The notes: a model not told the origin generated them from the sequence alone. Positions 1,211-54,763 are shown, counted from the stretch's first letter. The stretch: DNA of 64,000 nt from an uncultured Alphaproteobacteria bacterium (GCA_944389345.1 CALXMA010000001.1:69117-133116), one strand, 5' to 3'. Numbers and translations: made by a program.

Positions 1211-1240
1211 TTGCACGATATACGTGATTTTTTCTAGAAT
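1211..1240 (+). promoter_or_regulatory. sigma70-like promoter for the giant Cys-rich protein gene
   Basis: TTGCAC (1211-1216), 18-nt spacer, TAGAAT (1235-1240), about 20 nt upstream of the SD GAGAGGA and ATG 1263. Confidence 0.4.
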
Positions 1241-1262
1241 AAAATACAAAAGAGAGGAAAGT

Positions 1263-4200
1263 ATGGGAAAAAATCGCTGTTTTCTGGCTATCTTAGCTTC
1301 TTTGGTTATCGGTATTTTTGCGGGTACGGGTGCACACGCGGCGTACGATAACTGCTCTATTCAGTATACCAGTTGTAATTCTGGGTACTATATGAGTGGT
1401 TCGGGTGCCGGTAATTCGTGTAACGCATGTTCCAGTGCAAACAACACCACGTCTACGCGGTCGTGTACGCGGACTTGTTCTATTTCTAATGGAACTTGCT
1501 CCTATTCCGGTTCTACCCAGAAATGTAATGGTAAGTATACCGGTGGTGCCGGTGGCACATCGGGGGTCAGTTCATGTACTGGGTGTTCCAGTTATGGTGA
1601 GTGTACCGGCGGGACGATGAGTATTTCCTGTAACGCGAGTTATGAACTGTCGGGCAGTTCTTGCGTTGCGTGCGGTACCGGTGAATATAGTACCAAGGGT
1701 TCCAACAGTTGTAGTGCATGTACAAACAAACCAGCGAATTCCCATTACACCGGCAATGGTACATCCAATAACTGTTCGTGGGCATGTGATTCTGGGTATC
1801 ATGAAGAAGGCGGTTCTTGTGTACCAGATTGTTCCACATCAAAAGCATGTTCGTCGTTGGGTGCCGGTTGGCAGGGTACGTATAACGAATGTACCCAGAA
1901 CCAAGGTTCGCAGTGTTATAAGGCTTGTTTGGTCAGATGCAGTGGTAATGACACAGGTGAATGTCCGGCGAACGCATCATGTACATATAACACCGGTTAT
2001 AACTACTCTGGCACACAATATTATGGCGGTTCGTGCAATGCAGGCGGTTTGTGCCCAGTCAGCACCATATCATGTAATTCTGGATACTATAAAAATGGCA
2101 GTTCGTGTATTGGCTGTTCCACGGTCAGTGCCAGTGGCGATATAGTAGACAGCACATCAATCACGGGTGGCGACAGAATAACCGAATGTACCGGGAATCA
2201 CACGGGTGGTGCCGGTGGCAGCAGTGGTTCGGGTTCTTGTACCGGATGTTCTTCGACCAGAACATACTGTGAATGCGATTCGGGATATCATGTCGTAGGT
2301 TCGGGTGCCAGTTGCTATTGCGCATTGGATTGTAGCACAAGTGTTGCATGTCCGTCTGGTTATCCCGGCACATATAATGAATGCGACGGCGAAGACGAAA
2401 CAGATTGTAGCAGAACGTGCAGTACGCCATGTTCTGGACGCGCGTCATGCCCGGCCAATGCAAGTTGTTCGTACAACACCAGTTATACAACATCTGGCAC
2501 ACAATATTATGGCAGTTCGTGCGATGCCAGGGCTGTGGCCTGTCCAGTATCGTCGTTCACATGTAATCCGGCGTATCAAAAAAGTGGCAGTTCGTGTGTT
2601 GCATGTTCCTATAACGAAACCAGTGGCGCGTGCAGTTGTTCTGGTGGAACACACCCGAATGGTTCCGGGTCCTGCGTCAGTTGCAGCAAATCTTGCGCCA
2701 GTGTTTCGGGCTATACCCAGGGTACATATAACGCGTGCGATGGCGAAACAAACAACAAGTGCTATCGTGCATGCGTGGCGTCCGATATTGCGAACGCAAC
2801 CAGCGTAACGGGTACCGTGACCAAGGGTGGTGTAAAAACTTGTAAGGCAACAATGTGCGCGGATGGATATTTCGTGTCTGGTTCCGGATGCAAGGTTTGC
2901 CCGGCGAATTCTGGTGCGTGCGGTGAATCTTCGGATCCTGATGGATTTACATGCAACCCGGGATATCACAAAGATGGTGATTCTTGCGTACCTGATGAAT
3001 ATTCCATCGCGTTGAACAAGAACGGTGGTACCGGCGATATCGCGGCCAGTGTGACGTGTCGTCATGGTGAAAATTGCCAGTTGCCGACATCGGGTCTGAC
3101 ACGTGCTAACTATGACTTTACTGGTTGGGGCACCGAATCAACATGCACCCAGGGTGTATATTCCAAGGTGTTCACTTCTGCGACCACGATGTACGCATGC
3201 TGGTCCCAGAATACTGAAAAGTGCCAGGTTGGCAAGTACTATAATGGTTCCACACACGTGGCCTGTCCAAAGGGTTCATACTGCACAGGTGAAGGCAGTA
3301 CCAACGCAGGAACCGCGGGATGCAGTCAGGCATGTCCAAACAGTGGTACAACCGACGGCACGGGCGCATCTGCAATCACGTCGTGCTATATAACCTGCTC
3401 TGGTAAAACTATTACGGGCGGTACATTGACGGCGGATTCGGCCAAAGAATATTACAGTGGTTCGGCGTATGGCACATGTACATATACCGCAGACTGCGAT
3501 CCGGGTTATGTTGCCCAGAATAATGGTACGGCGTCTGCGACGTGCCGTGTGTGCACCGCTGGTGAAAACTGTCCGGGTGGCACAGATGACACTGAACCTG
3601 ATGACTGTCCCGAAGGCGAATATTGTGGCCCGGGCGAAGAACCCCAGGCATGTCCAGAAGGTGGAACGTCTGACGTTGGTGCGGGTTCTATAACAGAATG
3701 CTATAAGACATGTCCGTCGACAATCAGTGTTGATCATGCATCGTCGGTGAAATCTGATGGTCATGCGTATCACGACGGGACCAGTGGGTACAAGGCATGT
3801 ACATATACGGTGACGTGTGAAAGTGGCTATGAAGCCCAAGGAAACGGTACCGCATCGCCAAAGTGCGTATGGGCCGATCCGGATGCATGTCCGCCGGGGT
3901 CATACTGCCCACCCGAAGAAGAAGAACCCCTGTCCTGTCCAGCAGGTGGAACATCTGATGGTGGCGCAACCGAAGTGGCCGACTGCTATCGCGCATGTTC
4001 GGGCACGTCCACAACAGGTGGCACATTGGCACCCGTCAATGCCAAGGAATACTATACAAGTGGCGCGTATCCAGCATGTAAGTATAACGCAACATGCCAG
4101 GCAGGATACATGGCCGTGGGTAATGGCACCGCGTCGGCAAAGTGCGAACCGTGCGAAGATGGTGATTACTGTCCGGCCGGCACAACCGAAGACGACGAGC

Positions 4201-7200
4201 CAGAAGAATGCCCGCCTGACCAGGTTTGCGAAGGTGGTGAAGAACCCGTGGCTTGCCCAGACGGTGGTAAAACCGACGGTGGCGCAGGTTCTGTGACAGA
4301 ATGCTATAAGACATGTCCGGCGACCATAACGGTTGAAAACGCATCGTCGGTGAAATCTGATGGCAACGCGTATCACAATGGCACAACCGGGTACAAAGAA
4401 TGTACATATACGGTAACCTGTGCCGAAGGATACAGCCCGCGCAATAACGGCAGTGCAAACCCGACATGCGTTTGGGGTGATGCCAGCGAATGCCCAGAAG
4501 GATTCTATTGCCCGCCAGACAGCGATACACCTATTGCATGTCCAGAAGGCGGTGATTCCGACAAAGGTACAACGACCGAAACAGAATGCTTCAAGGAATT
4601 CGACCCATACAGTGGATTCGAAAAAGGTACTGCGTCGGCCAAATGTAAATGGGATGCTGGTGAAAAGGACTATATACGTTGCTCTATCGTGAACGTACAT
4701 ACGTGTGACGCGGGATATTACTATGGCCAGCAAAATGCGTTCAGCTGTATCGATCCGGGTTCGGGTTATTACAGCCCGGCGGGTGATGTGGATCGTACCG
4801 CATGTCCGACAGACGCAAATGGTGGTCGTGTCCAGTCCACCCCGAATGCAGAAAGTTATAGCGATTGCTATACCACATGCGATTTGAGCAAGGAAGACGT
4901 CGCGAATTCTACGACCGTGGCGGCGGCACAGAATACAGTGTCCGCAACCAGCGAAACCGCGTACCAGGCATGCTCTTATAGTGTGACATGCGAAACGGGT
5001 TATACGGTCGGTGGCAACAATACGGCGAATCCGTCTTGTAATGCCAATGAATACACGATTACGCTGAATAAAAACGGTGGCACCGGCAGTGTACCAGAAA
5101 CAATGAAGTGCACATTTAACAGTGGTAAATGCGAACTGCCCAAGACAGACGCGTTGACCCGCCCGGGATATTCTACCCAGGATAACAAGTGGTGCACCGG
5201 CCGTGATGGTACAGGTTCATGCTACTATGGTGGCCAGAACACGGGCGTCAACATATCCGAAGACGGTACGGCGGCTACGCTGTACGCGGTATGGGTGCCA
5301 AATGTGTACACGGTTAATCTGGATCACCAGAATGCCGATACAGACGGCGCACCGGGTACTGTGTACCTGAAATATGCGACGGGTTGGTTCAGCAACCAAG
5401 GTGCGACAACACCTATTGCGAAACTGACAACCGTTCCGGTTCGTGCGGGATATGAATTCGCGGGTTATTACAACGCGACAACCGCAGGTACCCAGGTTAT
5501 CGGTACAGATGGTACGTTCATAACATCTGAAAATGCGTTGACAATGACGACCAAAGAACCGACAACTATCTATGCAAGATGGGCAACGGGTACCATAACC
5601 TGTGAAGAAGGTACTTATTATCCAGGTACTGGTGCGGAATGTCTGCCCTGTGAAGATGGCAAATACTGTCCGGGTGGTGAATACGAAACCGACAGTGGCG
5701 AACAAGGTGGTTTGGAATCGTGCCCAGACGATGGTATCGCTGGCGAAGATGCAACATCTATGGCCGCGTGCTATAAGACAGGTCTGGATTACACCGCAGA
5801 ACATGGTTCAGGAACACAAACCTGCGACTATGACGTAGATTCCAGAACGTACAGTGCAGAATGTCGCGATTTCAAGATTGACGCATGTAACGCCGGTTAT
5901 TGGCGCCAAGGCGAAAGCGATACGGATTGTACAGCTGTTGGCCAGGGTTGGTACAGTGGTGCGAATACAATCACACGTACCCAGTGCCCGAATGGCGGAA
6001 ACACAGAAACTGAAACCGCAACCCAGGTTCAGGACTGCTATAAGACTGGTGTAGATTATACAGCGAACTATGGTTCCGGAACCCAGCGTTGCTTCTATAC
6101 CAGTGGCGAAGGCACCAGTGCAATATACCAGCGCGACTGCGACACCAAGAAGATTGACGAATGTCGTGGTGGATATTACCTGGCAGGTCAAGACGATACA
6201 GACTGTACCGAAGTTGGAAACAACTATTACAGTCCGCAGAGCGACACCGAACGCTATGCCTGCCCGGCCGGTGGTGAAACAGGCGAAGACATGAAGACCG
6301 CCGACACGCCGATGGTGTGTAAACGTGATGGCGAACCATATACGGGCGCACATGGTACTGGGGAACGCACATGCTTCTATACCAGTGGCGAAGGTGATGA
6401 TGCAATATATCTGAGTAGTTGCGAAAATGTTACAATGACTAAGTGCGACGCTGGATATTATTACAGCATATCGCTGAAAGACGACTGTACCGCGGTTGGC
6501 AAGGGTTGGTACAGCCCCGCCGATGACCTGAGCCGTTATCAGTGCGTGGACGGTGGTACAACAGAAAACGCAACCAGTGCATCTGAGTCTATGTGCTATC
6601 GCACCGATATGGCGTGCCCAGTGGACAATGGTACGGGTGAACAGACATGTAATTACGACGAAAGTGCCGGTGATTACACAGCCAACTGTCAACAGTGTAT
6701 GGTTACAGCCTGTGACGAAGGATATTCGTTGGTTGATAATACGTGTACCCTGTGTCCAGAAGGCAGTGTCTGTGACGAAGGCGAAGAAAAGACCTGTGCC
6801 GATTTAACAGGTGGTCAGTATCCGAATTCTGAAATCGGTACCGAAGATGTGTCTATGTGCTATCGCGACTGTGCGTTGGCGCCAAACGCATCGGTGATGA
6901 CGGGTCATGATTACTATACCGCCCCAGACACCTGTGCAATACAACGTTGCGCGGCCGGATATACACTGGAAAATGGCGCGTGCGTTGAATGCCCCGAAGG
7001 CAGTTTCTGCGACGGCGAAACGGACCCAGACCCAGATGATCCAGGCAGTGATATAAAGTCCTGTGCCGATTTGGGTAATGGCGAATGGGCGAATTCGTTG
7101 CCAGGTGCCACGGATGAAAGCGGTTGCTATAAGGTCTGTAAAGCGTACGATGTAATCAATGGTACCGCAGAACCCGTCAGCGACAAGGCGTTCTGGCCGA

Positions 7201-7934
7201 ATGACTGCGAATTCGAAGGCAAGTCAGAAACCGGAAATCCGTGCGATATTATCGATGGCGTCTGTGTCGAAACGTCGTGCATCGGTGGATACGAAATGAT
7301 TGACGGTAAATGCGAACCGTGCAACCGCGAAGGCGCACAAGGATATCTGCCAACAGGTATTTGCCAAATCGAATCCTGTGTCAGTGGATATCACCCGAAC
7401 GGCGACCAGTGCGAAGAAGACGTGCAAGAATGTTCTGTGCCGAATGCAATCTATGCCGAAAAAGTTTGGGATTACAAACTGAAAGCGTACAGCGATTGCT
7501 TGGTCAGAGAATGCGAATACGGATTCCATATCGCATCTAATGCGTGCGTATCTGATGTCCAGCCGTGCGATGTCGACAATGGTGCCGGATTCAAAGAATG
7601 GGATCACGACCTGAATAAGTGGGGCGAATGCGAGGCATCGGTCTGCGACCCAGGTTATACATCTGACCCATCGATGACCAATGAACGCACCAAACAGTGT
7701 GGCAGATGCAAGAATGCATACAGCATTGACGGGGATTTGGCTGCAACAGATTTCAGACGTGAATGCGAAATTGCATCCTGTCTGTACCAAGGCGAACGGT
7801 TCGATTTGCAGAACAACGAATGCGTACCGATTTGCCCGACCGAAGAATATTCGGACGATACAGGTACTATGAAATGGAACCCAACCACAAAGAAGTGTGA
7901 ACGTACATGCTTTGACGGTTATACAATGTGGTAA
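1263..7934 (+). CDS. Giant (2223 aa) secreted cysteine-rich repeat protein with ephrin-receptor-like/GCC2_GCC3-type Cys modules and Listeria-Bacteroides-type repeats
   Basis: ATG 1263 follows the SD GAGAGGA; the track start 1224 (GTG) lies inside the predicted promoter/5'UTR. Signal peptide MGKNRCFLAILASLVIGIFAGTGAHA. Dozens of modules have the form C..GYY...C..CP.GG.[ST]D.GA.S...CY. Three repeats resemble YSIALNKNGGTG...YDFTGW...MYACW. A strong terminator follows the stop. Confidence 0.85.
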   Translation: MGKNRCFLAILASLVIGIFAGTGAHAAYDNCSIQYTSCNSGYYMSGSGAGNSCNACSSANNTTSTRSCTRTCSISNGTCSYSGSTQKCNGKYTGGAGGTSGVSSCTGCSSYGECTGGTMSISCNASYELSGSSCVACGTGEYSTKGSNSCSACTNKPANSHYTGNGTSNNCSWACDSGYHEEGGSCVPDCSTSKACSSLGAGWQGTYNECTQNQGSQCYKACLVRCSGNDTGECPANASCTYNTGYNYSGTQYYGGSCNAGGLCPVSTISCNSGYYKNGSSCIGCSTVSASGDIVDSTSITGGDRITECTGNHTGGAGGSSGSGSCTGCSSTRTYCECDSGYHVVGSGASCYCALDCSTSVACPSGYPGTYNECDGEDETDCSRTCSTPCSGRASCPANASCSYNTSYTTSGTQYYGSSCDARAVACPVSSFTCNPAYQKSGSSCVACSYNETSGACSCSGGTHPNGSGSCVSCSKSCASVSGYTQGTYNACDGETNNKCYRACVASDIANATSVTGTVTKGGVKTCKATMCADGYFVSGSGCKVCPANSGACGESSDPDGFTCNPGYHKDGDSCVPDEYSIALNKNGGTGDIAASVTCRHGENCQLPTSGLTRANYDFTGWGTESTCTQGVYSKVFTSATTMYACWSQNTEKCQVGKYYNGSTHVACPKGSYCTGEGSTNAGTAGCSQACPNSGTTDGTGASAITSCYITCSGKTITGGTLTADSAKEYYSGSAYGTCTYTADCDPGYVAQNNGTASATCRVCTAGENCPGGTDDTEPDDCPEGEYCGPGEEPQACPEGGTSDVGAGSITECYKTCPSTISVDHASSVKSDGHAYHDGTSGYKACTYTVTCESGYEAQGNGTASPKCVWADPDACPPGSYCPPEEEEPLSCPAGGTSDGGATEVADCYRACSGTSTTGGTLAPVNAKEYYTSGAYPACKYNATCQAGYMAVGNGTASAKCEPCEDGDYCPAGTTEDDEPEECPPDQVCEGGEEPVACPDGGKTDGGAGSVTECYKTCPATITVENASSVKSDGNAYHNGTTGYKECTYTVTCAEGYSPRNNGSANPTCVWGDASECPEGFYCPPDSDTPIACPEGGDSDKGTTTETECFKEFDPYSGFEKGTASAKCKWDAGEKDYIRCSIVNVHTCDAGYYYGQQNAFSCIDPGSGYYSPAGDVDRTACPTDANGGRVQSTPNAESYSDCYTTCDLSKEDVANSTTVAAAQNTVSATSETAYQACSYSVTCETGYTVGGNNTANPSCNANEYTITLNKNGGTGSVPETMKCTFNSGKCELPKTDALTRPGYSTQDNKWCTGRDGTGSCYYGGQNTGVNISEDGTAATLYAVWVPNVYTVNLDHQNADTDGAPGTVYLKYATGWFSNQGATTPIAKLTTVPVRAGYEFAGYYNATTAGTQVIGTDGTFITSENALTMTTKEPTTIYARWATGTITCEEGTYYPGTGAECLPCEDGKYCPGGEYETDSGEQGGLESCPDDGIAGEDATSMAACYKTGLDYTAEHGSGTQTCDYDVDSRTYSAECRDFKIDACNAGYWRQGESDTDCTAVGQGWYSGANTITRTQCPNGGNTETETATQVQDCYKTGVDYTANYGSGTQRCFYTSGEGTSAIYQRDCDTKKIDECRGGYYLAGQDDTDCTEVGNNYYSPQSDTERYACPAGGETGEDMKTADTPMVCKRDGEPYTGAHGTGERTCFYTSGEGDDAIYLSSCENVTMTKCDAGYYYSISLKDDCTAVGKGWYSPADDLSRYQCVDGGTTENATSASESMCYRTDMACPVDNGTGEQTCNYDESAGDYTANCQQCMVTACDEGYSLVDNTCTLCPEGSVCDEGEEKTCADLTGGQYPNSEIGTEDVSMCYRDCALAPNASVMTGHDYYTAPDTCAIQRCAAGYTLENGACVECPEGSFCDGETDPDPDDPGSDIKSCADLGNGEWANSLPGATDESGCYKVCKAYDVINGTAEPVSDKAFWPNDCEFEGKSETGNPCDIIDGVCVETSCIGGYEMIDGKCEPCNREGAQGYLPTGICQIESCVSGYHPNGDQCEEDVQECSVPNAIYAEKVWDYKLKAYSDCLVRECEYGFHIASNACVSDVQPCDVDNGAGFKEWDHDLNKWGECEASVCDPGYTSDPSMTNERTKQCGRCKNAYSIDGDLAATDFRRECEIASCLYQGERFDLQNNECVPICPTEEYSDDTGTMKWNPTTKKCERTCFDGYTMW
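3337..4540 (+). repeat. Tandem ~600-bp intragenic duplication (module order A-B-A-B) inside the giant gene
   Basis: 3650-3880 and 4250-4480 align almost base for base (gaatgctataagacatgtccg...gcatcgtcggtgaaatctgatgg...tgtacatatacggt). 3340-3555 and 3940-4150 encode the parallel CP..GT[ST]DG.GA....CY..CSG...TGGTL...AKEYY block. Confidence 0.8.
5052..5582 (+). repeat. Two adjacent Listeria-Bacteroides (Flg_new-like) repeats at protein level; a third copy lies at 2999-3203
   Basis: YTITLNKNGGTGSVPETMKC...RPGYS...LYAVW, followed by YTVNLDHQNADTDG...RAGYEFAGYY...TIYARW. The spacing matches the Y.v.fd.nGG...GY.F.GW...lyA.W pattern as I recall it. Confidence 0.6.
5772..6740 (+). repeat. Four consecutive ~85-aa Cys modules (intragenic tandem repeat)
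   Basis: Each unit reads Y[KR]T[GD].(D)YT(A).[HY]G[ST]G[TE]Q.C.Y......C.......C.[AG]GY[WY]......DCT[AE]VG.[GN][WY]YS......R..CP.GG. Confidence 0.7.
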
Positions 7935-8135: not shown

Positions 8136-8327
8136 TTAATTGCAACGATCGTTGCACGTGTATACTGTTGTGGACGATGAACAATAACTGCTGACCGTTA
8201 CGCCAGAACTGCTAACACTGTATCCCGATGGTACGGTACTTGTTGTGATACACTGGTACGTCCCAGCGATACCGGGTCCGGCCAGACCACATATAAGTGT
8301 GGCAATAATTGGTATTTTGATTTTCAT
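8136..8327 (-). CDS. Small (63 aa) secreted Cys/Ser/Thr-rich protein, member A of the small Cys-rich family
   Basis: Strong SD GGGAGG lies 7 nt before the ATG. Signal-like N-terminus MKIKIPIIATLICGLAGPGIAG. The mature part has 4 Cys. It is preceded by the conserved leader also seen at 48.4-48.7 kb and 31.5 kb. Confidence 0.6.
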   Translation of the reverse strand: MKIKIPIIATLICGLAGPGIAGTYQCITTSTVPSGYSVSSSGVTVSSYCSSSTTVYTCNDRCN

Positions 8328-8545
8328 TGATAAACCTCCCTTTTCTCATTGTGTTTTGATAATGAAAAAACCACCGGAAAAATTCAGGTGGTTGGAGGTT
8401 CACAGCTATATCAGGTATAGTGTGCTTATTCGATATATTCGCACCCTCCAACCCAAATAAGAAGTTGGAGATTTTTTTCGTCGTCTAGACGCCTGATGCG
8501 GGCTGTGACACCCCGACGGGGGAATTCCCCCACGCCACTGTGTAG
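8328..8545 (-). promoter_or_regulatory. Structured 5' leader (attenuator/riboswitch-like), copy A
   Basis: Minus-strand RNA contains CGUCGGGGUGU (8518-8508), ACGACGAAAAA (8484-8474), hairpin CUCCAAC (8470-8464)/GUUGGAG (8452-8446), the competing strand CCUCCAACC (8398-8390) and a terminator. It is homologous to 48442-48681 with compensatory changes. Confidence 0.6.
8363..8393 (-). terminator. Intrinsic terminator inside leader A, about 37 nt upstream of the start codon
   Basis: RNA AACCACC-(11-nt loop)-GGUGGUU followed by UUUU. Its 5' arm shares AACC with the alternative helix strand CCUCCAACC. Confidence 0.65.
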
Positions 8546-8608
8546 TGTACCTGAATTTATTGCTTATAACAATAGATTTTTTTCAATGCATTGTATAAAA
8601 TCAATGTT

Positions 8609-30963: not shown

Positions 30964-31482
30964 TTACCTGTAATAGCAATTTGATGTGTACACATAGGTC
31001 CCCGTGGAATCGGAACCCACGGTTCCAGACGGCAAATAGCACGATGTAATAGATGTTGATGCCTGGGCCGAAGTGCCAGAATTTGGGCACGGCGTACAGC
31101 CAGACGTCCCATTAGACGTCACACCATAATATCCCGCCGCACAGGCGTACGAATATGTCTTGTCACACGTACCATTGCAATTGCATACACCCGTGTATTT
31201 ACGGACATATCCCGTACCATAGTCCGTCCATCCACTGCCGGAACAACTGCTGGCACACTGTATACAGCAATCTTCGAAAGTAACCATTTTGCACCGACCT
31301 TTGCTGGGCAATGTTACATTTTTAGGAATAAATCCAGAATAACGTTTGGCGCACGCGTATATGCGATCACAGTGCTTTGTGCTGTGGTCGCAACTGTATT
31401 TGTATTAAGTACTGCTGCAATGGCCGGCATATGCATACCCCGATATTCCGCACAATACAACTGCTATTAGTGTTTTTTTAAT
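30964..31482 (-). pseudogene. Decayed member B of the small Cys-rich secreted family (ATT in place of ATG; in-frame TAA at 31407-31405)
   Basis: The frame reads (I)KKTLIAVVLCGISGYAYAGHCSST-stop-YKYSCDHSTKHCDR...CTPCPNSGTSAQASTSITSCYLPSGTVGSDSTGTYVYTSNCYYR. Its C-terminus parallels member C (CASPGTSSAGTTSISGCCIPSGTTGTDSTGSYRYSSSCCWS). The track lists only the 115-aa tail. Confidence 0.6.
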
Positions 31483-31640
31483 TTCAGAACCCCTTTTTCG
31501 GTTTGTTAAACGAAAAAAACACCAGAAAAATTCAGGTGGTTGGGGGTATTTCACGTCCCCACGGACGCACAGCATAGAGGTTTAGATGCCTCAGTACAGG
31601 AATTCCCCGTACCGCTTGCGCGGTCTAGCACGAAAGATAT
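31483..31640 (-). promoter_or_regulatory. Degenerate copy B of the conserved leader
   Basis: Plus strand 31513-31546 aaaaaaacaccagaaaaattcaggtggttggggg versus 8365-8398 aaaaaaccaccggaaaaattcaggtggttggagg. It shares GGGGAATTCC with copy A. The terminator stem is weakened by a mismatch and the middle hairpin is missing. Confidence 0.45.
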
Positions 31641-31718
31641 TTTATGACAAGTTTTTTGTACACAGGCATATCTTTTATTTATTGCACCGGCCGAACCGTG
31701 CGCTATAATCGTTGCGAT

Positions 31719-47799: not shown

Positions 47800-48441
47800 T
47801 TAAGACCAACAACAACTGGACGAATATCTGTATGAACCAGTGCTGTCCGTTCCGGTTGTGCCAGATGGTATACAACATCCACTGATGCTGGTGGTGCCGG
47901 CCGATGACGTGCCCGGTGATGCACATGCCGTGCACCCAACGCCCGTTGACATATCGATTATACCTGTTCCCCAATATCCGGCGGAGCAACGATACTGTAC
48001 CTTTTTACTGCATACGCATGTACTGGTATTACATGTTGCGGTAATTTTTTGTTCGCGACCGCCACCGACACTGGTCCATCCGGTTGATTCACAATCATCG
48101 CACGTACCGTCGCAACCAGACCCACCAGATTTCTCGCATAAATACCATGTGTAGGGCCCACAAGAACCATGGCTGTATGTTTGCGCCTTGCGCGTATATC
48201 CAGACAGACAAGATGAACAACTGTTTATTTTGAATCCAGAACCAACCACTGTACCATCGGTATAACAAGACGAAGTTTGCGTTGCACATGGACCCGGATT
48301 GGTCGCCGCCACGCCACCACCAGACAGATTTGAACAAGACGTGGCACGGCACAGCGATGTAATTGCCAACGCCGGTTCGGGCACCGCCAACACGCCAACG
48401 GCGCACACGGCGCACAGTTTTGAAATTATTTGCGTTTTCAT
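47800..48441 (-). CDS. Small (213 aa) secreted cysteine-rich protein, member C of the family
   Basis: SD CAGGAG before ATG 48441. Signal MKTQIISKLCAVCAVGVLAVPEPALA. The mature part has more than 25 Cys and includes CSAGYWG...GCTACASPGTSSAGTTSISGCC, the same module as the giant protein's C..GYY...C..CP.sGt...ga.si..CY. Confidence 0.8.
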   Translation of the reverse strand: MKTQIISKLCAVCAVGVLAVPEPALAITSLCRATSCSNLSGGGVAATNPGPCATQTSSCYTDGTVVGSGFKINSCSSCLSGYTRKAQTYSHGSCGPYTWYLCEKSGGSGCDGTCDDCESTGWTSVGGGREQKITATCNTSTCVCSKKVQYRCSAGYWGTGIIDMSTGVGCTACASPGTSSAGTTSISGCCIPSGTTGTDSTGSYRYSSSCCWS

Positions 48442-48681
48442 TTCAATCTCCTGAACTATTGTTGCGATAACAAAAAACCACCGCTTTGCATTGGTGGTCA
48501 GGAGGTTGAGAACAATCTTGAGAATTGTGTCGCTTATTATGATATTCACGACCCTCCTGACCCTTTGGAATCAGGAGTTTATTTTTCGTCGTGATATTAA
48601 AATGGGCGCATTTGCGCCACGCTGAACACCCCGACGCTCAAGCACGGGTTCTCACACCCCATCGACGAAACACTCGTCGAC
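48442..48681 (-). promoter_or_regulatory. Structured 5' leader (attenuator/riboswitch-like), copy C
   Basis: RNA blocks are CGUCGGGGUGU (48636-48626), ACGACGAAAAA (48592-48582), hairpin CUCCUGA (48577-48571)/UCAGGAG (48560-48554), competing strand CCUCCUGACC (48505-48496), then a terminator. Confidence 0.65.
48472..48498 (-). terminator. Intrinsic terminator inside leader C, about 30 nt upstream of the start codon
   Basis: RNA ACCACC-AAUGCAAAGC-GGUGGU followed by UUUUU. Confidence 0.65.
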
Positions 48682-48687
48682 ACTTCT

Positions 48688-48716
48688 ATATTATCGCAAA
48701 CGGAAATTGATAGCAA
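48688..48716 (-). promoter_or_regulatory. sigma70-like promoter driving leader C
   Basis: Minus strand TTGCTA (48716-48711), N17, TAATAT (48693-48688). Confidence 0.55.
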
Positions 48717-49438: not shown

Positions 49439-49783
49439 TTATTTTTTCCAAAATGCAAATCCAGAACGACGTTCGGCCTTGTCTTCGCGTTGTTTACGAT
49501 CTTCGGCCGCGCGACGGCGTTCTGCGCGACGTTCTTGGAATCTGCGTGCGGATTCTTCGTCGCGTTGAATCAATGTCAATGTCGTAACAGATAATTTGCC
49601 GTTACGAACTTCCTCTTCAAATTCTACGATATCATTTTCGTTCAAGAACCGTATGCCGGCGGCCTTTAACGCACTGGAATGAACAAAAACATCGTCCATA
49701 TTTCCATCTTCGTTCGGGGTGTCCGGGGTAATAAAGCCAAAGCATTTCTTACCATTGTACCATTTTACTTTACCTTGACGCAT
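49439..49783 (-). CDS. Cold-shock domain protein with Arg/Glu-rich C-terminal extension
   Basis: GKVKWYNGKKCFGFI (RNP1-like) and DVFVHSSAL (RNP2-like), followed by a ~45-aa tail RDEESARRFQERRAERRRAAEDRKQREDKAERR. Confidence 0.85.
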   Translation of the reverse strand: MRQGKVKWYNGKKCFGFITPDTPNEDGNMDDVFVHSSALKAAGIRFLNENDIVEFEEEVRNGKLSVTTLTLIQRDEESARRFQERRAERRRAAEDRKQREDKAERRSGFAFWKK

Positions 49784-49922
49784 AATGTACCTTCCTTTGC
49801 TTATGCTTGTTATGGTTCCCAAGGATAACAGTGAACCTGTATTCATTGTTGCCGATTAGTTATGGGAATGCAAGAAAAAACACCCCACGGGATTACTGTT
49901 TTATTTCCCATGGGGCGGCGGA

Positions 49923-53468: not shown

Positions 53469-53752
53469 TGTTCTGTCCTTTACTTTTTCCGAATAACCAT
53501 ATAAAATAAGAACTGAATCCAAGAGATTGGGTTCAGGGCTATTGCAGGCCTTATGTGTTCGGTGCGAAAGCATCGTTAAAATGATGTTTCGGTGTTTTTC
53601 GCACCGTGATATCCCTGGCTTATGGTCGGGGAGTCGTTGGTTATAAAACAGGGGCAACCCAAAGACCGCGGAATCATTTAACACATATGATTGCAATCTC
53701 CCTGACCGCTCTTTCTTTTGGAGCGGTTAACTTTTTACCAAACTAGTAAGAA

Positions 53753-54763
53753 ATGAAAAAACTGTTCTTAATGGCCTTAATTTTATCATTAACAGCCTGT
53801 GCTGGTGGTTCAGGGGGTAGTTCTGGAAACACTGGTAATACAACACCCAACACACCAGGTCAATCAGCATACGAATTATGGTTGGCCCAAGGGCATACAG
53901 GAACAGAACAAGATTTCTTAGATTGGTTGCTTTCTGGCGGAAACAACGGTTCCAATGAAGTAGTAACAAGAAATTTCAACAAACAAGTTGAATTAGACGA
54001 ATATGTTGAATTTGGAGACCCCCAAGGTGGACACGATTACCACTATACACAAACCGATAAACCCTGGGCAAAATACGGAGGGTTCAAACAATATAATGCT
54101 AATTATTTAACCAATGTTCCTGGCACATACGTTGTGGTAACATACAACGAAAAGGAATTAGATTTAAGTAATTATGGTGTTGCTTTTTATAAAACTTGGA
54201 CCAGTTCGGGTGGTTGGGCAAACTATTCCGCAAATGGGTATGTAACTAATCGCGACATAGATTACGGCTCTAATGCCTATATTCCAGAAACTGGTACTGT
54301 TTTCACGGGCGGAACATTGGCATATATTTATAAAAATTTTAAATATGACCCTGACGAGTCTGACAAAATTTTAATAAAAGGGGATGCAACCTTTACTTAT
54401 AACCCAACAAATCCAAGTTTAGTTTTAGATTTTGATAATTATTATACATTTGCTATGAATTTTCCTAACTCTGCAAGTGGCGGAGCTGCATATGGATTAA
54501 CATCCAGTCCCAATGGAACATCGGTTGCCAATGTTACCGTTTCTGGAACAAATAATACTGGCAATTCTGACTATAATTTAACTCCTGGTGCATATTCTAA
54601 TACAAATGCTTATTTACGCACACAGCATTTTCAACAAAATAATACAGAGGAAGCCACTGGAATGTATTACATAAATAGTTATTCCGTTGGAGGAACAAAT
54701 AATTGTACTATGGGTAGCGATTGTTTCCAGATAACTGGTGGTTTTGGCGGCACCAAACAATAA
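53753..54763 (+). CDS. Surface lipoprotein (predicted Slam substrate) with TbpB/fHbp-like C-terminal beta-barrel signature
   Basis: Lipobox LSLTAC followed by a Gly/Ser linker. The C-terminus ...ATGMYYINSYSVGG...CFQITGGFGGTKQ resembles the G.fyG...E..G.f....GaFGakkq ending of Slam-dependent lipoproteins. The stop overlaps the Slam start (TAATG). Confidence 0.7.
   Translation: MKKLFLMALILSLTACAGGSGGSSGNTGNTTPNTPGQSAYELWLAQGHTGTEQDFLDWLLSGGNNGSNEVVTRNFNKQVELDEYVEFGDPQGGHDYHYTQTDKPWAKYGGFKQYNANYLTNVPGTYVVVTYNEKELDLSNYGVAFYKTWTSSGGWANYSANGYVTNRDIDYGSNAYIPETGTVFTGGTLAYIYKNFKYDPDESDKILIKGDATFTYNPTNPSLVLDFDNYYTFAMNFPNSASGGAAYGLTSSPNGTSVANVTVSGTNNTGNSDYNLTPGAYSNTNAYLRTQHFQQNNTEEATGMYYINSYSVGGTNNCTMGSDCFQITGGFGGTKQ

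Follow-up and report, generated by a model that had tools for sequence, protein, structure and literature searches.

A structured leader upstream of a cysteine-rich secreted protein gene

We analyzed a 64,000-nucleotide stretch of DNA from an uncultured Alphaproteobacteria bacterium (GCA_944389345.1 CALXMA010000001.1:69117-133116; this whole stretch is referred to as the window), in which the gene for a 213-amino-acid (aa) cysteine-rich secreted protein (gene C) is preceded on the minus strand by a structured leader (copy C; 48716-48442). The whole analysis was comparative and computational. An earlier reading of the window, referred to here as the original prediction, had proposed for this leader a three-strand terminator/antiterminator switch matching no known leader class and had counted three copies of it (A, B, and C). 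The window derives from a Candidatus Enterousia-like alphaproteobacterium, as its lysS gene is 98% identical to lysS of an Enterousia-group metagenome-assembled genome (MAG). The order Rs-D84 (Candidatus Enterousia group) consists of uncultured gut bacteria with reduced genomes of <1 Mbp (PMC12306168).

The TTGCTA-N17-TAATAT promoter, the ~240 nt of untranslated RNA, the Shine-Dalgarno (SD) sequence and ATG of gene C, and the terminator with its 10-nt loop ~30 nt before the start codon all lie where the original prediction had placed them (Table 1). Because the copy C promoter matches the consensus at only 8 of 12 positions, it was overlooked by a generic promoter scan; it sits at the position where the leader family keeps its promoter. 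Likewise, a generic terminator scan limited to 8-nt loops overlooked the copy C terminator, in which a hairpin is followed immediately by a U tract, as in intrinsic terminators, and whose U6 run (ending at 48472) stops 30 nt before the ATG (48441). Both this terminator and the upstream hairpin P2 are present in the minimum-free-energy (MFE) structure of copy C computed with RNAfold, which has a z-score of -5.1 relative to shuffles. A lemA-like gene upstream of the leader ends in its own terminator (48785-48765), so that leader C and gene C form an independent transcription unit of promoter, leader, gene, and terminator. The gene C protein is without a Pfam domain, and its homologues are confined to related MAGs.

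Table 1. Positions of the predicted leader elements, of further leader copies, and of the associated genes in the window
Feature	Position	Strand	Description
Copy C promoter	48688-48716	-	-35 TTGCTA 48711-48716, 17-nt spacer, -10 TAATAT 48688-48693
P0, 5'-terminal hairpin	48661-48681	-	GUCGACGA / UCGUCGAU; 93.6% paired in alignment A4, 98.8% in held-out set A6
P1a hairpin	48646-48660	-	GGGG...CCC; stem versions GGG/CCC, AGG/CCU, and GAG/CUC covary
Loop a of P1a	48648-48653	-	GAGAAC; pairs with a' (48508-48513) in an H-type pseudoknot
Segment b	48637-48642	-	CUUGAG; partner b' in P4 loop
P1, expanded in C subtype	48587-48636	-	CGUCG...CGACG around GC-rich hairpin GGCGCAAAUGCGCC, then U-rich run; stem covaries
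A-rich linker, P1-P2	48578-48586	-	AAAAAUAAA; moderate conservation, unpaired in consensus
Strand 1 (S1)	48571-48577	-	CUCCUGA; 5' arm of P2, putative anti-antiterminator; P2 96% paired; three-way covariation
Strand 2 (S2)	48553-48561	-	GUCAGGAGG; 3' arm of P2 and 5' arm of putative antiterminator; UCAGGAG core 48560-48554
P3 hairpin	48529-48552	-	GUCG/CGAC with A/U-rich loop UGAAUAUCAUAAUAAG; stem 98-99% paired, covarying
P4 hairpin	48513-48527	-	CAAU...AUUG; loop with b' CUCAAG 48517-48522
a', 3' strand of a:a'	48508-48513	-	GUUCUC; 2 nt upstream of strand 3
Strand 3 (S3)	48496-48505	-	CCUCCUGACC; 3' arm of putative antiterminator; last 3 nt are the start of the terminator 5' arm
Intrinsic terminator, copy C	48472-48498	-	ACCACC 48498-48493, 10-nt loop, GGUGGU 48482-48477, U6 ending 48472
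Gene C, 213-aa secreted Cys-rich protein	47800-48452	-	SD AGGAG 48448-48452, ATG 48439-48441; from the list of open reading frames
Copy A, major subtype	8366-8572	-	CUCCAAC / GGUUGGAGG / CCUCCAACC; promoter, full leader, terminator; 122.9 bits with R1
Gene A, 63-aa secreted peptide	8136-8327	-	behind copy A
Copy B, remnant	31513-31650	-	promoter, P0, P1a, P1, and terminator kept; 27 bits
Copy B gene, Cys-rich pseudogene	30964-31480	-	ATT for start codon, in-frame TAA
Copy D, divergent	53479-53736	+	S1 CCCUGGC, S2 GGUCGGGGAG, S3 CUCCCUGACC; 19.9 bits, E = 0.003
Lipoprotein gene	53753-54763	+	behind copy D, which has promoter and terminator

Covariation supports a doubly pseudoknotted leader fold

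BLAST searches with leaders A and C against 80 lysS-anchored loci of relatives found 17 leader homologues, and pattern scans of GTDB, one per strand-2 subtype, matched at least 120 loci each, nearly all of them in gut, rumen, or termite alphaproteobacterial MAGs. An nhmmer search yielded 272 hits, from which we parsed 246 distinct copies, almost all from Rs-D84/Enterousia MAGs. We aligned 74 nonredundant leaders with MAFFT, blind to structure (A3), and 118 leaders to a covariance model of 158 positions and 37 bp (model R1, alignment A4); a set of 109 leaders from loci never used for R1 was held out (A6).

The nested helices P0, a:a', b:b', P1, P2, and P3 were paired in 95.7% of the cells of A4, with two-sided changes at 32 of the 37 pairs and a covariation score of 0.687, compared with 0.186 for column shuffles and at most 0.10 for controls with slid partners. 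The held-out leaders of A6 were 97.9% paired, covaried at 30 of the 37 pairs, and scored 0.582 versus 0.178. The same pairs had already been seen in the structure-blind A3; b:b', which MAFFT could not align, was aligned through the covariance model. P1a and P4, short stems that cross the nested helices, were both supported by covariation, and G-U pairs were plentiful on the sense strand alone. The structure-preserving covariation that the original prediction implied for a wider alignment was therefore strong in A4 and in A6, and the putative sensor domain covaried far above the shuffled and slid controls, as a riboswitch sensor domain would.

In the resulting model, the elements follow one another from 5' to 3' as P0, P1a, b, P1, linker, P2, P3, P4, a', 2 nt, S3, and terminator, with two nested pseudoknots (P1a with a:a', and b:b' with P4) enclosing the three hairpins P1, P2, and P3. 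P0 showed two-sided changes at all 8 of its pairs. The a:a' helix was 99.4% paired with covariation at all 6 pairs and, together with the likewise covarying 3- to 4-bp stem of P1a, has the form of an H-type pseudoknot in which L1 is 1 to 2 nt long (U or UG) and loop a directly adjoins the P1a 3' strand. The b:b' helix was 94.5% paired, with two-sided changes at all 6 pairs, and reached 98.6% in the held-out set. P4 alternates CUAU/AUAG with CAAU/AUUG (second pair UA in 70, AU in 41), P1 is often GNRA capped across the family, and the P3 loop is near invariant, with the family consensus GAAUAU-nn-GAAUAA. Conserved sequence is found chiefly in P2 and S3, in the loop of P3, and in the short stems of the pseudoknots; in a, b, and the stems of P0, P1, and P3, the sequence is free to vary and the pairing is kept.

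The original prediction had placed a possible sensor domain in the 5' ~100 nt of the leader and had pointed to two conserved blocks there. That region is included in the predicted domain, the real extent of which is the whole double-pseudoknotted leader, P2 included. One block, ACGACGAAAAA, is homologous between copies A and C and corresponds to the 3' arm of P1 plus the A-rich linker. The other, CGUCGGGGUGU, is a coincidental match: in copy A it comprises the P0 3' arm and GGGGUGU, for which the equivalent in copy C is CGAUGGGGUGU from 48664, and copy C's own CGUCGGGGUGU falls within the expanded P1. A first pattern search with both blocks retrieved only two high-GC actinobacterial MAGs, probably by chance.

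P1 is expanded in the CUCCUGA subtype to which copy C belongs (median, 52 nt), and 72 of 90 such leaders carry a GC-rich hairpin and U run within it. The hairpin and U run inside P1 of copy C (48596-48618, minus strand) were scored as terminator-like by the scan, and the hairpin sequences vary between copies. This insert looks like an intrinsic terminator or pause module within the sensor domain. Members of A6 also contain it (e.g., L214, L305, and L223).

Three strands and a terminator form a putative switch

The original prediction had described CUCCUGA pairing with UCAGGAG and a second sense copy, CCUCCUGACC, overlapping the 5' arm of the terminator, as an anti-antiterminator/antiterminator/terminator layout. 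These pairings are present in copy C, and the layout extends to the family. S2:S3 forms 9 to 11 contiguous bp in 138 of 142 copies, S1:S2 forms 5 to 11 bp, and strand 3 is a sequence copy of strand 1. A strict test detected a hairpin and U tract after S3 in 128 of the 142 copies; the terminator stem takes the last 4 to 5 nt of S3 in 106, and its sequence varies between copies. The leader therefore has the mutually exclusive helices of a riboswitch expression platform in a cis 5' untranslated region (UTR).

One covarying pair between S2 and S3 lies outside P2. The S2 base 3' of GGAG and the S3 base 5' of CUCC form G-C in 100 copies, U-A in 26, U-G in 9, and G-U in 1, with 6 mismatches (in A4, GC in 85, UA in 24, and UG in 5), and the corresponding base beside S1 is random. 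The 10-bp S2:S3 helix was 96.4% paired in the held-out C-type set. Across the 246 copies, S1, S2, and S3 occur as discrete triples, GUU-GGAG with CUCC-AAC and UCA-GGAG with CUCC-UGA, with no mixed triple and with all deviations being G-U wobbles; copy D and its orthologues have a third triple, CCCUGRCC / GGUCGGGGAG / CUCCCYGACC. Since three strand subtypes (A, C, and D) are present in one genome, pairing rather than sequence recognition appears to constrain the switching strands, and a three-way pairing constraint would account for how strongly they are conserved.

We considered leader-peptide attenuation and rejected it. An in-frame GUG at 48549 gives a 249-aa open reading frame (ORF) in copy C only, and the SD-like GGAGG in strand 2 is not followed by a conserved start codon, as the loop positions at which UUG would arise are variable.

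Leaders precede secreted-protein and regulator genes at a fixed distance

When R1 was run on 1.31 Mb of lysS loci unselected for the element, 21 strong and 2 weak copies were found, corresponding to a density of ~16 to 18 leaders per Mb, or roughly 12 to 18 per genome. A σ70-like promoter with at least 9 of 12 consensus matches was found at a fixed position in 73% of 117 leaders versus 4% of random windows. Its -10 element ends 0 to 1 nt before the model start and is exactly TATAAT in 53 of the 117. An SD-led ORF on the same strand follows in 137 of 142 copies, at a median of 49 nt past the model end (interquartile range [IQR], 43 to 56). In four loci of relatives, tandem leaders stand before a single gene for an XRE regulator or secreted protein (L018:20140-20549, L021:20244-20607, L165:728-1151, and L180:3391-3739); every tandem unit has a terminator, and those inspected (L018 and L021) each have their own promoter-like box.

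The 114 nonredundant proteins encoded downstream comprise 54 with signal-peptide-like N termini, as called by a heuristic, 48 small nonsecreted proteins, and 12 others. The small proteins are XRE/Cro-type helix-turn-helix proteins by Pfam (HTH_31 in 23, HTH_19 in 18, and HTH_3 in 16). The secreted proteins are mostly orphans, many of them cysteine rich and a few with Listeria-Bacteroides repeats or Ephrin-receptor-like cysteine-rich domains; an ABC transporter, a DNA methylase, and a glycosyltransferase were single cases. The proposal that the regulated genes belong to one protein family thus holds for genes A, B, and C of the window and fails for the copy D gene and for the family at large, in which many unrelated secreted proteins, along with XRE-type regulators, are encoded behind the leader, making the regulon wider than one protein family.

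The SD region of gene C contains UCAGGAG (48447-48453, minus strand), the strand 2 sequence, for which S1 and S3 are possible pairing partners. Among C-type leaders, 29 of 91 have CAGGAG in the SD region, versus 3 of 113 among major-type leaders. This subtype-specific match may represent a fourth strand for translational control or a mere co-duplication of leader and 5' UTR. As it is inseparable from such co-duplication, we did not retain SD sequestration by S1 or S3.

The recurrence of complete units with their own promoter and terminator, some of them in tandem, would also be expected if the copies were independent small RNA (sRNA) genes, each producing a structured RNA of ~190 nt that acts in trans, for example by placing CCUCC anti-SD-like strands on SD sequences. 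S1 and S3 are indeed anti-SD-like, the terminated product is the predicted stable form, and the C-type match of S2 in the SD region would suit such targeting. However, the strand and spacing to the start codon are fixed, there is no sign of a second promoter between the terminator and the gene, and a pure sRNA would have no use for a conserved, covarying S2:S3 helix that overlaps the terminator. In addition, in the remnant copy B, the sole degraded example seen, loss of the switch accompanies decay of the gene. We therefore regard independent sRNA genes as improbable, and we count the fixed promoter position, the ORF spacing, the tandem units, and the decay of copy B as support for a role in cis.

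The same high copy number raised the question of whether the copies might be repetitive DNA, such as a REP/MITE-like element or recombination site, or chance hairpins rather than a functional RNA. S2 lies as an inverted copy between the direct repeats S1 and S3, the deletion in copy B runs from S1 to S3, and CUCCAAC / GUUGGAG superficially resembles the integron attC core, YYYAAC / GTTRRR. Against a DNA element, copies within the same genome differ widely in their stems and show strand-specific compensatory and G-U changes, terminal repeats and target duplications are absent, and promoter, terminator, and gene are fixed in position and orientation. Moreover, orthologues occupy syntenic sites (copy B with L014; copy D with L003, L004, and L005). 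This explanation is hardly credible, even less so than that of sRNA genes.

Leaders were also observed on contigs classed as viral in IMG/VR (L325:12032-12175, L326:8454-8591, and L327:780-923; 106 to 110 bits with nhmmer), where neighbors include a PLD-family nuclease, a DNA methylase, and an endolysin-like protein and the leader precedes a secreted protein or ABC transporter. We did not adopt a phage origin, as the genes behind these three copies are of the kinds found elsewhere in the family and their surroundings look chromosomal or prophage-like.

A proposed mechanism of attenuation

These findings lead us to consider the leader on the minus strand at 48716-48442 as probably a member of a new, Rs-D84-specific family of riboswitch-like attenuation leaders, in which an effector presumably locks P2 and turns expression off. 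Comparisons among the copies show the fold of the RNA, its competing helices, its terminator, and its position in cis; we infer that an effector exists, what it may be, and the direction in which it acts.

Transcription would start just 5' of P0, and P2 would form first as the RNA is made. The a' strand would then close the sensor domain before S3 emerges. S3 could invade P2 from its base, with the G left unpaired behind GGAG serving as a 1-nt toehold and with a gain of 1 to 3 bp over S1, and the resulting S2:S3 antiterminator would take the first 3 to 5 nt of the terminator 5' arm and allow read-through. With P2 closed, the terminator would form and transcription would stop ~30 nt before the start codon. 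An effector, whether a small molecule, an ion, or a trans-acting factor, would most likely stabilize the sensor fold including P2, block the invasion, and turn the gene off. We propose this OFF logic because the anti-antiterminator in S-box and PyrR leaders also lies within the effector-bound fold.

Several points weigh against this interpretation. In nested-model energies, 96% of leaders favor P2 plus the terminator over a forced S2:S3 fold (median difference, 12.9 kcal/mol), so that spontaneous read-through is not obviously favored and the sign of regulation could be reversed. S2:S3 also crosses a:a' and b:b', and its formation may therefore require the whole sensor domain to unfold. Because P2 and S3 are highly conserved within each subtype, within-subtype covariation is weak, and the case for alternative helices draws on one covarying pair and on comparison between subtypes. 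The shuffle controls take no account of phylogeny, A4 and A6 were fitted to R1 (A3 and the held-out set agree with them), and the pattern scans demanded S2 and the P3 loop, so that the sampled copies are biased and diversity in these parts is undersampled. Finally, we identified no ligand or binding factor, and the gene context points to no ligand.

The energy balance fits the opposite logic, in which termination is the default and a trans-acting factor, be it an RNA-binding protein, a small RNA or tRNA-like molecule, or a ligand, stabilizes the weaker S2:S3 helix or sequesters strand 1 to turn expression on, as in T-box leaders, BglG/LicT-ribonucleic antiterminator (RAT) systems, and ANTAR systems. 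The terminator fold is the ground state by ~13 kcal/mol, as where an effector must stabilize the antiterminator, and default-off units exist in tandem. The near-invariant 16-nt P3 loop with its two GAAUA half-sites resembles a docking site, and a regulon of surface proteins and regulators would suit a dedicated activator. Yet a dedicated anti-antiterminator such as P2 within a covarying sensor fold is typical of an OFF switch, and the presence of three strand subtypes in one genome argues against sequence-specific recognition of the switching strands beyond the CUCC/GGAG core. No candidate factor was identified, nor was a partner of the P3 loop found in the window: a search there for a trans-acting RNA complementary to the loop returned only the antisense of copy A and hits with 3 mismatches, near chance expectation, and we dropped such an RNA as a candidate for lack of a convincing complement in the window. 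We consider ON logic unlikely, although clearly less so than sRNA genes, and retain an OFF switch as the better account.

Relation to known RNA families and leader systems

The original prediction could assign the leader to no known class, and the Rfam scans of copy C, which were negative, bear this out. With Rfam 15 (4227 models) at gathering thresholds, the whole window yielded only 3 tRNAs; permissive scans of copies A and C returned nothing above 21 bits, against thresholds of 37 to 60, and a scan of the 18 loci with the top-scoring members found tRNAs only. Given these results for the window, copies A and C, and the relatives' loci, we excluded a known RNA family. The literature that we could search on Enterousia, Rs-D84, and structured-RNA surveys, a nonexhaustive selection, held no prior description, and a string search had no match among 200 of the 408 supplementary files of a human-microbiome RNA survey. 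Judged by these comparisons, what is new comprises the RNA family, the double-pseudoknot fold of its sensor, the lineage that carries it, and the regulon; the principle of attenuation by alternative helices is well known.

The closest logic is that of S-box (S-adenosylmethionine-I [SAM-I]) OFF riboswitches, which share the four-strand scheme of a sensor helix (here P2) against an antiterminator and an intrinsic terminator, a 5' UTR site, a complex covarying aptamer-like fold, and tandem occurrence. Unlike the S-box, the leader has no SAM-I sequence or structure match, forms a nested double pseudoknot around a three-hairpin junction, strongly favors the terminator state thermodynamically, and precedes genes for surface proteins and XRE regulators rather than metabolic genes. 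T-box leaders resemble it in being ~200-nt multihelix leaders with many copies per genome, a default-stable terminator, a competing antiterminator, and tandem arrangement. In contrast, the leader has no specifier loop or T-box sequence, its S2:S3 is a perfect 9- to 11-bp helix without a bulge, the genes behind it are unrelated to aminoacyl-tRNA supply, and RF00230 (T-box) gave no hit in copies A and C even at E ≤ 10.

In PyrR, TRAP, BglG-LicT (RAT), and ANTAR systems, a factor bound to a hairpin chooses between terminator and antiterminator, and the P3 GAAUA repeats would be a possible protein site of this kind; as in RAT and ANTAR systems, the ground state of the leader is predicted to be terminated by default. 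However, inspection by eye, with no formal motif search, revealed no PyrR loop, (G/U)AG repeats, RAT hairpin, or dual hexaloops, no cognate protein was identified in the 64 kb and the relatives' fragments (the proteome was not surveyed), and the Enterousia sensor domain is much larger and more pseudoknotted. Cyclic di-GMP (c-di-GMP)-I and -II riboswitches are an analogy for the regulon only: they too have many copies and surface, adhesion, and regulator genes, and c-di-GMP-II is also pseudoknotted, but size and architecture differ and neither GEMM-I nor GEMM-II of Rfam matched. The raiA motif is similar in length (~200 nt), multiple pseudoknots, strong covariation, and orphan biochemical function. 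It is thought to be a stand-alone noncoding RNA, whereas the covarying platform and fixed ORF spacing of the leader, which had no Rfam match, point to action in cis.

Possible scope of regulation

Bacteria of the order Rs-D84, Ca. Enterousia among them, occur widely in the guts of humans, livestock, and termites. To our knowledge, none has been cultured, and gene regulation in them is almost undescribed. The leader would be the most abundant regulatory element of these bacteria, and the genes that it controls would be the likeliest mediators of contact with hosts or other microbes. A covariance model of the leader could serve as a marker to annotate these MAGs and predict a co-regulated surface-protein regulon. 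With more than 240 sequences, two predicted pseudoknots, and a clean three-strand switch, the family offers an orphan sensor RNA ready for ligand screening and structural work, as well as a natural case of three-way covariation freezing switching strands into a few discrete alleles.

More tentatively, and with somewhat less than even confidence, the leader might act as a global riboswitch particular to this lineage, or be targeted by a dedicated riboregulator, in response to a signal that has yet to be connected with RNA sensing. If so, ~12 to 18 copies would coordinate roughly 2% of the genes of an uncultured gut symbiont with a genome of <1 Mbp, spanning its secreted and surface proteome and small XRE regulators. 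The sensor fold would then be unlike any solved aptamer, and the early terminator-like module embedded in C-type leaders would provide two checkpoints in series.

Other leader copies and neighboring genes in the window

The three copies of the original prediction were all present, copy B as a deleted remnant, and a fourth, divergent copy (D) had escaped it (Table 1). Gene A encodes a signal peptide plus the first cysteine module, 30% identical to the N terminus of a 200-aa protein of the related locus L014, and may be a truncated member of the cysteine-rich family. Compared with its intact orthologue (L014:18154-18315; with the gene, L014:18154-18968), copy B has lost everything between the direct repeats S1 and S3, and the ATT in place of a start codon and the in-frame stop codon identify its gene as a pseudogene. 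In copy D and its orthologues in L003 and L004, a:a', b:b', and the three strands covary. The score of copy D is so low that further divergent subfamilies probably exist.

A giant cysteine-rich, repeat-rich secreted protein of 2236 aa is encoded at 1224-7934 on the plus strand, converging on gene A; its upstream region has a tRNA gene (1042-1115) and yielded no leader copy. The gene at 49439-49846 on the minus strand, two genes upstream of leader C, encodes a CspA-like cold-shock-domain protein with a long basic C-terminal tail. CspA-family proteins of E. coli are RNA chaperones and antiterminators.

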